Below the pieces are notes generated by a model. The model made no database searches. It saw only the letters and a program-made list of their open reading frames with translations, and was not told the origin of the DNA. 60,574 nt of DNA, taken from contig CAZYIP010000001.1 in the NCBI GenBank assembly GCA_964646895.1, forward strand, positions 1-60,574, written 5' to 3'. This document shows, piece by piece, positions 32,930-42,205 of this stretch. The DNA comes from an uncultured Salinisphaerales bacterium (GTDB taxonomy: Bacteria > Pseudomonadota > Gammaproteobacteria > Nevskiales > CAZYIP01). The position numbers and the translations under genes were made by a program. Positions within the stretch are counted from its first letter, which is position 1, and every line of letters begins with the position of its first letter.

Positions 32930-34384
32930 ATGTCGTTGACGCTGCAGGTCGTCCGCTACCAGGGTGCGACGCCGGCGCACCCGGTGTCGGTCTCTGTCAA
33001 TCAGCAGCCGGTCATCATCGGACGGCGGCCGGACTGCGATTTGCTTCTGGCCGACCCCGAACGCTTCATTTCCAGCCAGCACGCACAGGTATCGTGGAAT
33101 AACGGCGCCTATTATCTGGCCGACACCAGCACCAATGGCACCTACATCAACCACGCGGAGACACCGGTCGGGCAGGACGGTGCGGTACAACTCAACGACG
33201 GCGACGAAATCACCATAGGCGACTACGACATACAGGTTCACGTCAGCGCTGCGACTGCGCCCGAAGTTGCCACCATTCCACCCGCGCCGCAGGACCCTTT
33301 CGGCAGCGTGGCACCGCCACCGCCAGCCGCACCACCGCCACCTGACGCCGGCATGAGCTCGCCGCCGTTCGCGCCGCCTCCCCTGATACCGGAGGATCCC
33401 GTGGTCGGTGGCGATGAACCGCTCGATCCATTGCAACTGATCGACGGTGTAGCGGACGAATTTTCCAGCCCTGGGCAGCCCTGGCCGGGCGCACAGTCCG
33501 ATCCGTCGTCGGTGCTGCACGACGTCGACCATGCGCAGGAACCGCCAGCGGATGCCTGGCTCGGCCAGTCCGGCTCCGTGCCCGACGATATTCCGGCCGA
33601 TCAGGCGTACTTCGCGCCGCCACAAGCCATCCCCGAAGATTGGGACGTGCTTGACGACACATCCGAGCCACCGCCACCGCAGCCGGCACCACAACCCGCG
33701 CCTGTTGCACCACCACAACCCGAGCCGCCGCCTGCCGCACCAGTGGCCGCGCCGGCAACACCGGCGACGCCACCCGCTGTCGACGCCGATGCCGCCCGTG
33801 CGCTGCTTGCGGGTCTGGGGCTGGAAAAGGTCCAGCTCGACAGTGCGGAAACAGCCCGGCTGATGCAGCTGGTCGGCGAATTGCTGCGCGAAATGACCAC
33901 CGGCGTCATGCGCATTCTGGCCAATCGCGCCAGCCTCAAGAATCAGATGCGCATGGACATGACCACGATCAAGGCGGCGGAAAACAATCCCCTCAAGTTT
34001 TCCAGCGGGGCCGAAGATGCCCTCAACCGCCTGCTGATCAACCCGGGACAGGGCTATCTGCCACCGCGGCGCGCGGTGCGCGAGGCGATCGACGATCTGC
34101 AGGTGCACGAGCTGGCCCTGATGGCCGGTCTGCGGGCCGCGTTGACGGCACAGTTCGAACGCCTGGCGCCGCAGCAGGTGGAACAGCGGGTAAAGCGATC
34201 ATCCCTGCTCGGCTCATCGCGCAAGGCCCACTGCTGGGAACAGTACATCACCTTGTACAAGCAACTGCGCAACCAGGCCGAGGACGATGCGCTGCGCCTG
34301 GCCGGCGATGCATTCATGGAAGCCTACGAAGCCCAGGTACGGCAGATCGGAGCGGCGCGGGACAAGGGTGACGACGAGCGCTGA
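32930..34384 (+). CDS. tagH: T6SS FHA-domain protein TagH/Fha (ImpI/VasC family)
   Basis: FHA core 'IIGRRPDCDLLLADPERFISSQHAQVSWNNGAYYLADTSTNGTYIN'. Pro-rich linker. Conserved ImpI-type C-terminal domain. ATG 32930; the tracked ORF starts at 32783. Confidence 0.85.
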   Translation: MSLTLQVVRYQGATPAHPVSVSVNQQPVIIGRRPDCDLLLADPERFISSQHAQVSWNNGAYYLADTSTNGTYINHAETPVGQDGAVQLNDGDEITIGDYDIQVHVSAATAPEVATIPPAPQDPFGSVAPPPPAAPPPPDAGMSSPPFAPPPLIPEDPVVGGDEPLDPLQLIDGVADEFSSPGQPWPGAQSDPSSVLHDVDHAQEPPADAWLGQSGSVPDDIPADQAYFAPPQAIPEDWDVLDDTSEPPPPQPAPQPAPVAPPQPEPPPAAPVAAPATPATPPAVDADAARALLAGLGLEKVQLDSAETARLMQLVGELLREMTTGVMRILANRASLKNQMRMDMTTIKAAENNPLKFSSGAEDALNRLLINPGQGYLPPRRAVREAIDDLQVHELALMAGLRAALTAQFERLAPQQVEQRVKRSSLLGSSRKAHCWEQYITLYKQLRNQAEDDALRLAGDAFMEAYEAQVRQIGAARDKGDDER

Positions 34385-34442
34385 GCACAGGCGCCACAGA
34401 ACAGCGAATCTCAACCAACCGACAACGATCCGGGGATCCTTC

Positions 34443-34940
34443 ATGAAAATTTCGCGTCACATGCTCGCCGCCCTGCTGTGGCTGACCCTGCCGGCCGCCC
34501 TCCTCTCCCTCGGTGGCTGTTCGTCCCTCAATCCGTTCGGCCCTGGTCCCACCAGCGTTGCGGCGACGGTAAGCGCGACTCCCAACGTCAACCCCAATGC
34601 CGACGGGCGTCCATCGCCCATCGTGGTGCGCATTTATTACCTGAGCGACAAGGCACCCTTCGAGAATGCGGATTTCTTCACCCTGTTCGACAAGGACGCG
34701 GCGGCGCTCGGCAGCGCCATGCTCAGCCGGCATGAATACGAACTGAAACCCGGCGCCAGCCGGAAGCTCGAAGAGAAACCACCGCAGGGCGCCAACTATA
34801 TTGCAGCGCTGGCCGCATATCAGGACATCGACGGCGCCCGCTGGCGCGCCGTCTACCCGATCGAGCCGCATCAGGACAACCGCATCACGATCCAGATCGG
34901 TGCGGATGCAGTATCCGTTATCGCCGCGACCGACGACTGA
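34443..34940 (+). CDS. tssJ: T6SS outer-membrane lipoprotein TssJ
   Basis: Lipobox 'LSLGGCSS'. ~165 aa. 'PIVVRIYYLSD...FFTLF' is typical of TssJ/SciN. Positioned between tagH and tssK. Confidence 0.75.
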   Translation: MKISRHMLAALLWLTLPAALLSLGGCSSLNPFGPGPTSVAATVSATPNVNPNADGRPSPIVVRIYYLSDKAPFENADFFTLFDKDAAALGSAMLSRHEYELKPGASRKLEEKPPQGANYIAALAAYQDIDGARWRAVYPIEPHQDNRITIQIGADAVSVIAATDD

Positions 34941-34978
34941 CATAGCCAGGGCCTGTTGACGGGCCCCAGGAGAACGAA

Positions 34979-40736: not shown

Positions 40737-40741
40737 GCGCG

Positions 40742-41419
40742 ATGCCAACGCAAACAGCGGCGGGATACTACGGAAAGATTCCGCTCCACGGCGACTTCGT
40801 GCAGCTACGGCTGCCCCAGGCATTCATACAGCCCTGGGACGACTGGCTGCAGGCCGGCCTTGCCAGCAGTCGCGAACGCCTCGCAGATGGCTGGCTCGAC
40901 GTCTATCTCACCAGCCCTGCCTGGCGCTTCGCGCTCGCACCCGGGGTCTGCGGCGAGCCGGGATACGCGGGCGTGATGATCCCCAGCGTCGACCGGGTCG
41001 GTCGCTACTTTCCCTTTATCGTAGCCGCACCTTTGCTGCCCGGCGTTTCGGTGTTTGCGGCGGCGCGTGCGGCGGAGTGGTTTGTCAGAGCCGAAGAGCT
41101 GATTCTTACAGCGCTCGACGACGAGTTCGATCGCTCGCGTTTCGATGCGGCACTCGAGGATCTCGGTGACTGTGGCGAGGCTGCACAAGCCGCGCCCGCA
41201 TCACCTTCACCACCGCAATCGCTGGAAAACGCGAACGCTCTCGATATACCGCTCCTGACACTGGCGGAGCAAATGGCTGCGATGGCGACACCTGACTGTA
41301 CCCTGTGGTGGTCGCATGGGTCTGACCGGGTTGCGCCATCGTTGTTATGGGCGCATGGCTTGCCCCACACCGGGGGATTTCATGCGCTGCTGACCGGCAA
41401 CTGGGACGACTGGCCATGA
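40742..41419 (+). CDS. tagF: T6SS-associated post-translational repressor TagF (DUF2094/ImpM)
   Basis: 'GYYGKIPLHGDFV' N-terminal hallmark. Immediately follows tssM as in H1-T6SS-type loci. Confidence 0.8.
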   Translation: MPTQTAAGYYGKIPLHGDFVQLRLPQAFIQPWDDWLQAGLASSRERLADGWLDVYLTSPAWRFALAPGVCGEPGYAGVMIPSVDRVGRYFPFIVAAPLLPGVSVFAAARAAEWFVRAEELILTALDDEFDRSRFDAALEDLGDCGEAAQAAPASPSPPQSLENANALDIPLLTLAEQMAAMATPDCTLWWSHGSDRVAPSLLWAHGLPHTGGFHALLTGNWDDWP

Positions 41420-41455
41420 GCCGAACCTCCCTGCCCCGACTCGAGGCCCGCAACC

Positions 41456-42205
41456 ATGGGTGATACCGCCTTTCTCGTCTGGACGTCCGCCAGCCGCACC
41501 GACGTGGGCAGGAAACGCCGCCTCAACGAAGACGCCTGTCTGGACCGCCCGGAGCTGGGGCTGTGGGTGGTCGCGGACGGCATGGGAGGACACAGCGCCG
41601 GCGATTACGCCTCGCGCCTCATCGTCGAGAGCCTGGGGCATCTCGACCCGCCGCCCAGCATGGCGAGCTTCATCGGCGAGGTGCGCAACCGCCTGAACAC
41701 AGTCAACCAGATGTTGCTCACGGAAACGCAGCGACGCGGCGTCGATACGATCGGCAGCACGGTCGTCGCACTGCTCGCGCTCGGCCGGCGCTGTACCTGC
41801 CTGTGGGCTGGCGACAGCCGCGCCTATCTGTATCGTGACGGCGCATTGAATGCAGTCACCCGCGATCACACCGTCGTCGAGGAATACGTGCAAAGCGGGC
41901 GCATGAACCGGGCCCAGGCAGCTATCGCTCCCGATGCCAACGTCATCACCCGCGCCGTCGGCGTCGATCCCGGCATGGAGCTGGACATGACGGGAGAAAT
42001 GCTGCGACCCGGCGATACCTTCGTGCTCTGCAGCGACGGCCTGTACAAGGAACTATCGGAAGAGGACATTGCCGCCGCCTGTGCAACCGGTACCAGCGAA
42101 GAGATCTGCACTGCCTTGATGGATGAGGCACTGCACCGCGGCGCGCGGGATAACGTGACCGTTATTGTCGTCCAGTTTCGCAGCGCGTTCACCGCGGACT
42201 GCTGA
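41456..42205 (+). CDS. pppA: PP2C-family Ser/Thr phosphatase (PppA/TagG-like)
   Basis: 'RRLNEDA', 'VVADGMGGHSAGDYAS', 'GDSRAYL' and 'CSDGL...RGARDNVTVIVV' PP2C motifs. Confidence 0.85.
   Translation: MGDTAFLVWTSASRTDVGRKRRLNEDACLDRPELGLWVVADGMGGHSAGDYASRLIVESLGHLDPPPSMASFIGEVRNRLNTVNQMLLTETQRRGVDTIGSTVVALLALGRRCTCLWAGDSRAYLYRDGALNAVTRDHTVVEEYVQSGRMNRAQAAIAPDANVITRAVGVDPGMELDMTGEMLRPGDTFVLCSDGLYKELSEEDIAAACATGTSEEICTALMDEALHRGARDNVTVIVVQFRSAFTADC

Follow-up and report, generated by a model that had tools for sequence, protein, structure and literature searches.

Does the gene cluster at positions 32930-42205 of contig CAZYIP010000001.1, from an uncultured Salinisphaerales bacterium, encode half of a type VI secretion system (T6SS)? 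The stretch of 60,574 bp that we analysed (referred to as the window) carries at this position the genes for a membrane complex, for TssK and for several regulators. An earlier note, made from the letters alone, had described these genes as a half locus confined to that interval, lacking the sheath, tube, spike, baseplate and ClpV genes. It had offered two explanations: a system split across the chromosome, or an orphan membrane complex with its own phospho-regulation that was possibly repurposed.

Our analysis indicates that these genes most likely belong to a complete T6SS that is phospho-regulated and has an accessory block of unusual size. The interval 32930-42205 is probably one arm of a large, presumably complete cluster with two convergent arms, and the genes for the sheath, the tube and the baseplate would lie further upstream of vgrG. 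The locus could not be limited to the interval given earlier, as T6SS-linked genes fill the window up to its right end and same-strain contigs continue to VgrG. In total, the cluster spans at least 36 kb, made up of the part of the window from 32.9 to 60.6 kb and another 8.45 kb beyond its right end. The impression of a half locus thus arises mostly because the window ends inside the cluster.

The plus-strand operon

The larger open reading frames (ORFs) of the window, the GC content of which is about 62%, were profiled with Pfam and NCBIfam at curated cut-offs. All seven genes of the operon, fha/tagH, tssJ, tssK, tssL, tssM, tagF and pppA, are located on the plus strand and are intact. The first encodes the phosphothreonine-reading FHA scaffold Fha/TagH (32930-34384, with an ATG at 32930; TIGR03354, 331.6 bits against a cut-off of 120; Pfam FHA and T6SS_FHA_C). 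It is followed by the genes for TssJ, the outer-membrane lipoprotein of the membrane complex (34443-34940; TIGR03352, 138 bits against a cut-off of 31.6; 165 amino acids on contigs of the same strain), and for TssK, a baseplate protein that mediates the docking to the membrane complex (34979-36313; TIGR03353, 485.8 bits). The inner part of the complex is represented by TssL/DotU (36340-37272; TIGR03349, 250 bits), a short form without OmpA-like extension that has one membrane helix (residues 248-266), and by TssM/IcmF (37269-40736; TIGR03348, 1159 bits), which has three membrane helices and an intact Walker A motif, GPPGAGKT, at residue 136. The operon is completed by the post-translational repressor TagF (about 40739-41419; TIGR03373, 156 bits) and the PP2C Ser/Thr phosphatase PppA (41456-42205; Pfam PP2C; NF033484, 200 bits). 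The tagF ORF opens at 40556 and M62 is the likely start; the orthologue in L068, the locus of the nearest relative, has 229 amino acids. TssK, PppA and TssM are 86%, 74% and 72% identical to their L068 orthologues, respectively.

The curated NCBIfam thresholds were exceeded several-fold by the core proteins, the lengths of which agree with those of the nearest orthologues. The identity and the coordinates of the seven genes had thus been given correctly before. The profile scores, the helices and the Walker A motif identify TssJ, TssL and TssM as the membrane complex of a canonical T6SSi-type system. In addition, an FHA protein, a PP2C phosphatase and TagF are encoded alongside tssJKLM, as in the phosphorylation pathway of the H1-type system. 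The order of the genes, which had been called canonical for H1, indeed is so through pppA, but no ppkA or tagTSRQ genes follow.

Among the strain-level contigs, fha and tssJ/K/L/M together showed 23 synonymous versus 2 non-synonymous single-nucleotide polymorphisms (SNPs), and these core genes are under strong purifying selection. In two surface or sensor proteins of the accessory block (described below) the SNPs were distributed differently over the contigs L070-L077: the giant kinase had 8 synonymous and 8 non-synonymous changes and the autotransporter 7 and 5, respectively, which suggests relaxed or diversifying selection as compared to the core T6SS genes. Scans for promoters and terminators, carried out on the region upstream of fha and on the junction where the arms converge, returned sites that were no more frequent than in shuffled sequence.

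Two variations in the composition of the operon were observed. TssL is of the short form (305-310 amino acids) both in the window (36340-37272) and in L068; an OmpA-like peptidoglycan-binding extension (436-443 amino acids in all) is present in relatives from Sedimenticola and the Polarisedimenticolaceae (L007, 11342-12673; L069, 3563-4873). TagF and PppA are encoded by separate genes in the window and are fused into a protein of about 520 amino acids in Methylobacter, Methylomonas and one other metagenome-assembled genome (MAG) (L010, 16236-17786; L053, L055 and L062). A TagF-PppA fusion is known for Agrobacterium.

To locate the remaining components, TssA/B/C, Hcp, TagJ, TssE/F/G, ClpV and VgrG from related loci, the identity of which had been checked with Pfam, were used as tblastn queries. 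Against the six frames of the window no match was better than E=0.1, and the Pfam scan of the larger ORFs was in agreement. TssE/F/G, TssA/B/C, Hcp and ClpV were likewise not found in the 8.45 kb beyond the window. The earlier statement that TssA/B/C/E/F/G, Hcp, VgrG and ClpV are missing from the 60 kb therefore stands; the absence of a spike does not, because a PAAR gene is present at 58232-58519. Nor does the locus hold a membrane complex, TssK and regulators only, as the PAAR protein and a PpkA-like kinase of 1500 amino acids (53547-58049) had been overlooked.

The convergent arm within and beyond the window

The minus-strand genes from the autotransporter to tpsA converge on the plus-strand T6SS operon. 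Read in the direction of transcription, the minus-strand arm as far as it was followed comprises vgrG, a low-GC island, a DUF6931 gene, a second Ser/Thr kinase gene (kinase 2), the gene for a Sel1/caspase-like lipoprotein, the autotransporter gene, the PAAR gene, the giant kinase gene, tpsB and tpsA. Of these genes, only the final stretch from the autotransporter to tpsA is contained in the window, the end of which falls within the autotransporter gene.

The spike is represented by two genes of this arm. The PAAR spike-tip protein (58232-58519, minus strand; 95 amino acids) matched PF05488 with 85.8 bits (cut-off 27), and the C-terminal 418 amino acids of VgrG are encoded on L115, a contig of the same strain. 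The PAAR protein is 93% identical to that of L068 and 94% identical to that of L088. This conservation is unusually strong, considering that other proteins of these relatives are 54-86% identical and the neighbours of PAAR 54-70%.

The giant kinase (53547-58049, minus strand; Pfam Pkinase and FGE-sulfatase) is a PpkA-like receptor Ser/Thr kinase of 1500 amino acids. Its kinase domain (residues 155-433) is followed by a single membrane helix (residues 440-458) and, according to the predicted topology, by about 1040 periplasmic amino acids. The latter consist of some 830 amino acids of helical repeats and a C-terminal domain of the FGE/SUMF1 fold, with PvdO and FGE as matches in the PDB. The predicted architecture (kinase domain, helix and periplasmic domain) is that of the transmembrane Hanks-type kinase in the H1 phosphorylation pathway. 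The family to which the protein belongs has more than 2,871 members, and orthologues are encoded directly 3' of pppA, the ppkA position, in L007, L008, L011 and L013. Judged from its domains, the giant kinase may be a fused equivalent of PpkA plus TagR.

The path beyond the right end of the window was established by exact-protein look-ups, which led to Logan contigs of the same strain (runs SRR8648365-76). The window overlaps with L070 over 5550 bp (99.78% identity), L070 with L078 over 4222 bp (99.88%) and L078 with L115 over 1374 bp (99.78%). The tiling path adds 8451 bp, all of it coding on the minus strand. The autotransporter (58544-60574 in the window, where its ORF is open at the edge; Pfam Autotransporter beta-domain) has 705 amino acids in full; the window lacks the first 29 codons, the start being at +87, and L070 holds the whole gene. 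Further on, the minus strand encodes a lipoprotein with Sel1 and Peptidase_C14 (caspase-like) domains (+167 to +1909), kinase 2, a receptor kinase of 521 amino acids (+1937 to +3502), and the DUF6931 protein (+3685 to +4302). A cargo island with five small ORFs, among them a fragment of a kinase gene, follows at +4583 to +7099; it has 54% GC versus about 62% elsewhere. Finally, the last 418 residues of VgrG are encoded at +7194 to +8450 (Pfam Phage_GPD, Phage_base_V and Gp5_trimer_C). This fragment is 68% identical to the VgrG of L082. On the basis of the gene order in relatives, VgrG had been expected directly upstream of DUF6931. That placement was rejected, as VgrG is located 2.9 kb further up, past the cargo island.

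The tiling path has a second source of support. An exact look-up placed p147 (one of the island ORFs), kinase 2, the Sel1/Peptidase_C14 lipoprotein, DUF6931, the autotransporter (as a call of 668 amino acids) and a close variant of p207 (another island ORF) together on one NCBI contig of 69,692 bp, which is presumably the source of the window. The path is therefore independently supported to +5.7 kb. The source contig probably ends near the 5' end of vgrG, since subtracting 60,574 and 8,451 bp from its 69,692 bp leaves about 670 bp, which is about the size of the missing 5' third of this gene; vgrG is a classic break point in assemblies. A search of the JGI metagenome contigs with an exact 30-mer from the extension returned no match.

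The island (L115, 1353-3301, and L078, 202-1393) encodes p167, p199 (with a signal peptide and TPR-like), the kinase fragment of 86 amino acids, the very basic p207 and the acidic p147. It looks like a variable region for VgrG cargo or effector-immunity genes combined with a rearrangement scar, and the relatives are without it. Kinase 2 and the Sel1/Peptidase_C14 lipoprotein form a conserved gene pair (L070, 902-4237). The pair is found 3' of pppA in L089, L098 and L099; it occurs without visible T6SS genes in L090-L096 (10 kb per side where the contig allows).

The remainder of the arm consists of the two-partner secretion (TPS) genes. TpsB, a transporter of the ShlB/FhaC type (51509-53521, minus strand; Pfam ShlB and POTRA_2), is encoded next to the giant kinase, an order that is shared by L088, where TpsB is 70% identical. 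The exoprotein TpsA (43725-51341, minus strand) has 2538 amino acids and contains a TPS domain and 15 DUF5649 repeats (Pfam). A VENN motif was not seen on reading its sequence, no systematic search having been made. Homologues of TpsA adjoin the same type of T6SS in L007, L013 and L062, and TPS genes recur beside this type in L007, L013, L062 and L088, in varying positions.

Between the two arms, the plus strand encodes a predicted lipoprotein of 212 amino acids (42350-42988; signal peptide and a lipobox-like LLTAGC), which had no Pfam or NCBIfam match and no homologue in the related loci. It is followed by an insertion (43040-43711, plus strand) composed of genes for a VapB-like antitoxin, with a weak MazE/AbrB match, and a frameshifted PIN (VapC) toxin. 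The two PIN halves align to profile positions 1-47 and 60-118 in different frames, which places the frameshift near 43470-43510. The split PIN gene is either a pseudogene or an assembly error.

Gene order in relatives and the competing explanations

A TssK-based scan of species-representative genomes yielded 63 loci, with a best TssK that was only 58-60% identical. The commonest layout among these relatives is collinear, fha-(tssJ)-tssK-L-M-tagF-pppA-tssA-tssB-tssC, unlike the divergent arrangement of H1. A divergent tssA operon upstream of fha, which had served as the template for calling genes missing, is thus the wrong model for this clade: the tssABC genes of the relatives are located downstream of pppA or in a convergent arm. 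In a minority layout (Sedimenticola, a Polarisedimenticolaceae MAG, Thiocystis, Methylomonas and others) the tssJKLM arm has no tssABC in the 3.5-10 kb visible per side. These loci typically have a large FGE-domain kinase right 3' of pppA, with TPS or autotransporter genes near.

The nearest relatives are the most informative. In the contigs L082-L086 (SRR24974057-74) the order is TssF, TssG, ClpV, two unknown genes, VgrG, a gene for 69 amino acids, DUF6931, kinase 2 and Sel1/Peptidase_C14, where L084 contributes kinase 2 and the start of the last gene to the order of L082. Contig L088 (SRR24974059, of the same sample series as L082) carries the autotransporter, PAAR, giant kinase and TpsB genes in the order of the window. 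The identities between this organism and our strain are 77% for DUF6931, 73% for kinase 2, 70% for the autotransporter, 94% for PAAR, 62% for the giant kinase and 70% for TpsB. The second relative (SRR6877289) is represented by L087, with ClpV, VgrG, DUF6931, kinase 2, Sel1/Peptidase_C14 and the N-terminus of the autotransporter, and by L068. The latter holds the C-terminus of the autotransporter, PAAR and the giant kinase, which converge on pppA-tagF-tssM-L-K-J-fha, and then a GGDEF/EAL gene. A partial gene of 577 amino acids beside PAAR in L068 was first guessed to encode VgrG; this was rejected in favour of the autotransporter. The collinear JGI contig L089 shows tagF, pppA, kinase 2, Sel1/Peptidase_C14, autotransporter, tssA, tssB, tssC, hcp, tagJ, tssE and tssF, and in the canonical loci L039, L040, L043 and L066 the DUF6931 gene is located between vgrG and PAAR. 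Because of these gene orders, the accessory genes in and beyond the window can be regarded as regular companions of the complete T6SS clusters of the clade. A homologue search with the TssC of Methylobacter was uninformative: there were at least 120 matches, and among the matches listed all were at least 84% identical and the named ones came from Methylococcales or an unclassified Gammaproteobacterium.

Of the baseplate proteins, TssK is encoded in the window; TssF and TssG are encoded in the equivalent arm of L082. For our strain, we infer that clpV, tssG and tssF, and then tssE, hcp, tssC, tssB and tssA, are located upstream of vgrG or elsewhere in the genome; the first three are placed upstream of vgrG because the nearest relatives have them there. 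With these genes the machine would be complete.

Several points weigh against a two-arm cluster of this kind. The tssA/B/C, hcp, tssE/F/G and clpV genes of this very strain were never seen, as the path stops inside vgrG. The link to vgrG itself is formed by a single metagenomic contig (L115), through the overlap of 1374 bp alone. The foreign-looking insert of about 2.9 kb between vgrG and DUF6931, with its kinase fragment, represents a rearrangement that could have broken the linkage further up. Finally, the two contigs of each relative were assumed to come from one genome. An ordinary split locus, in which the cluster ends at or near vgrG and distant tssABC, hcp, tssEFG and clpV genes on the chromosome complement it in trans, is the main rival. 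It is unlikely in our judgement, yet it has precedents: for Geobacter, Xanthomonas, Yersinia and Hahella, T6SS loci that are split and complement each other have been described (Boyer 2009, PMC2660368). It is also in line with L013/L069, where tssABC do not accompany the tssJKLM arm, the kinase is followed by housekeeping genes and TpsBA are encoded upstream, and with Thiocystis (L047/L048), Methylomonas (L053/L055) and L022, where tssABC are not found near this arm either. The kinase-gene fragment and the low-GC island beside vgrG, which mark a rearrangement, point the same way, but the scar lies downstream and not upstream of vgrG. Moreover, both closest relatives encode ClpV upstream of their vgrG orthologue, L087 immediately so and L082 past the two unknown genes, with TssG and TssF next in L082. 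The earlier suggestion that the rest of the system is to be found elsewhere was right in spirit; the real cause of the apparent split is that the window covers only part of a cluster which exceeds 36 kb and has two convergent arms.

The fact that sheath and tube genes were not seen in the window and the adjoining 8.45 kb would also agree with a decaying remnant, which has lost the sheath, tube and baseplate arm and of which the rest is turning into pseudogenes; the local disturbance (the kinase fragment, the frameshifted vapC and the insertions between the arms) could be taken as a sign of this. Decay is nevertheless improbable because of the strong purifying selection on the core genes, evident from the 23 to 2 ratio of the SNPs. 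In addition, the eight T6SS genes of the window (PAAR plus the seven of the operon) are all full length when compared to the family models, and PAAR has kept its 93% identity to relatives in which identity is only 54-86% for the other proteins. A TssJLM-TssK complex that is orphaned and repurposed, has its own phospho-regulation and works without a contractile sheath is extremely improbable. Its only support is that no sheath, tube or baseplate genes were seen in the 60.5 kb and the further 8.45 kb. The presence of PAAR in the window and of VgrG and DUF6931 on overlapping contigs of the same strain ties the locus to a spike, the SNP ratio applies here as well, and relatives have the same module within complete clusters. 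In the nearest ones the equivalent arm is linked to ClpV, and in one of these also to TssG and TssF. To our knowledge, TssK has no role besides the docking of the baseplate. A related possibility is that the sheath, the tube and TssEFG are truly absent and that an assembly of TssJLM, TssK, VgrG and PAAR, gated by the two receptor kinases together with PppA, Fha and TagF, performs a job without contraction, for instance the anchoring or presentation of a spike-borne protein. This we consider very improbable.

Known systems, putative control and meaning

The closest described counterpart, compared by gene order only, is the H1-T6SS of Pseudomonas aeruginosa, in which the order fha-tssJ-tssK-tssL-tssM-tagF-pppA is identical. 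Both systems have an FHA protein, a PP2C phosphatase, TagF and a single-pass, membrane-bound Hanks-type kinase. Both also have a periplasmic module of the FGE/SUMF1 fold, which is TagR in H1 and the C-terminus of the kinase here; in this context we take COG1262 to be the FGE/SUMF1 family. TagR is listed as COG1262 in a 2026 review (PMC13584744). Unlike H1, the window has no divergent tssA-tssB-tssC operon upstream of fha, and its kinase gene does not follow pppA but resides in the convergent arm. The kinases differ as well: about 1040 amino acids of helical repeats and FGE fold are fused to the kinase of the window, whereas PpkA carries a von Willebrand A domain, with TagR as a protein of its own. 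Furthermore, our locus has two kinases, an autotransporter, a TPS pair and a Sel1/caspase protein. The Pfam inventory showed neither a separate TagR nor a pair of ABC proteins resembling TagS and TagT next to the cluster, and thus no TagQRST module.

The collinear clusters of Methylococcales and related Gammaproteobacteria (L010, L012 and L089) have the short receptor kinase, Sel1/Peptidase_C14, autotransporter and DUF6931 genes in common with our locus, and TssK is 56-57% identical in L010 and L012 (L089 starts at tagF and has no TssK to compare). They differ in that tssA-B-C-hcp-tagJ-tssE-F follow pppA on the same strand, several of them with a TagF-PppA fusion, whereas the arm here is inverted and lies some 17 kb away, behind TPS, toxin-antitoxin and kinase genes. 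The split loci described for Geobacter, Xanthomonas, Yersinia pestis and Hahella (Boyer 2009) resemble our case in that one locus holds part of the 13 core genes and the rest comes from other DNA. The apparent split here, however, is mostly due to the window end; the spike genes are linked and the arms of the relatives are contiguous.

The genes that flank the cluster on the left were as described before. The Pfam matches to an H-NS family gene (29590-30042, minus strand; Histone_HNS, E=8.7e-14) and to an MHYT-PAS-GGDEF diguanylate cyclase (30447-32528, plus strand; GGDEF, PAS and MHYT, with seven predicted membrane helices) confirm both neighbours. The cyclase gene is located directly 5' of fha on the same strand, and in L068 a PAS-GGDEF-EAL gene likewise adjoins fha. 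The region 131-29092 is occupied by transport and metabolism genes (a sugar ABC system, an amidohydrolase, an FAA hydrolase, an acyl-CoA synthetase/GNAT, thiD, glpK, a DeoR-family regulator, glpD, a ugp-like ABC system and two PALP enzymes). It also carries an IS605-type TnpB (6217-7551, minus strand; OrfB_IS605 and a Cas12f-like TNB domain), apparently without an adjacent TnpA. To the left of the window only genes for a GntR regulator, a hydrolase and RidA were found.

By analogy with described systems, a two-arm cluster of this composition would most likely work as follows. TssJLM would form the envelope-spanning complex, onto which TssK would dock the baseplate of TssEFG, VgrG and PAAR. The Hcp tube and the TssBC sheath would polymerise and the sheath contract, after which ClpV would recycle it. 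Firing may be gated as in the H1 system of P. aeruginosa, with a membrane receptor kinase that phosphorylates Fha or TssL, PppA reversing the phosphorylation and TagF holding the system off. The control of T6SS by threonine phosphorylation in H1 and Agrobacterium has been reviewed (PMC13584744). The helical region and the FGE-fold domain in the periplasmic part of the giant kinase might sense an envelope or contact signal. A ligand- or partner-binding role for this domain is plausible because FGE-fold proteins also act as non-enzymatic T6SS immunity proteins (bioRxiv 10.1101/2021.05.21.445229). It is conceivable, although we hold it to be rather doubtful, that the giant FGE-domain kinase, the autotransporter, the Sel1/caspase protein and the TPS pair together serve T6SS firing in this clade as a so far undescribed input that senses the envelope.

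The locus illustrates that a fixed window is no safe basis for calling a secretion system incomplete if the cluster is oversized and accessory genes come between its arms. The set of accessory genes that is conserved in the clade, consisting of an FGE-fold kinase (at the ppkA position in several relatives), the pair of kinase 2 and the Sel1/caspase protein, the autotransporter, DUF6931 and a recurrent TPS pair, may be worth following. If it is true that this set signals into the switch formed by Fha, PppA and TagF, it would represent a trigger for T6SS firing that is distinct from TagQRST.

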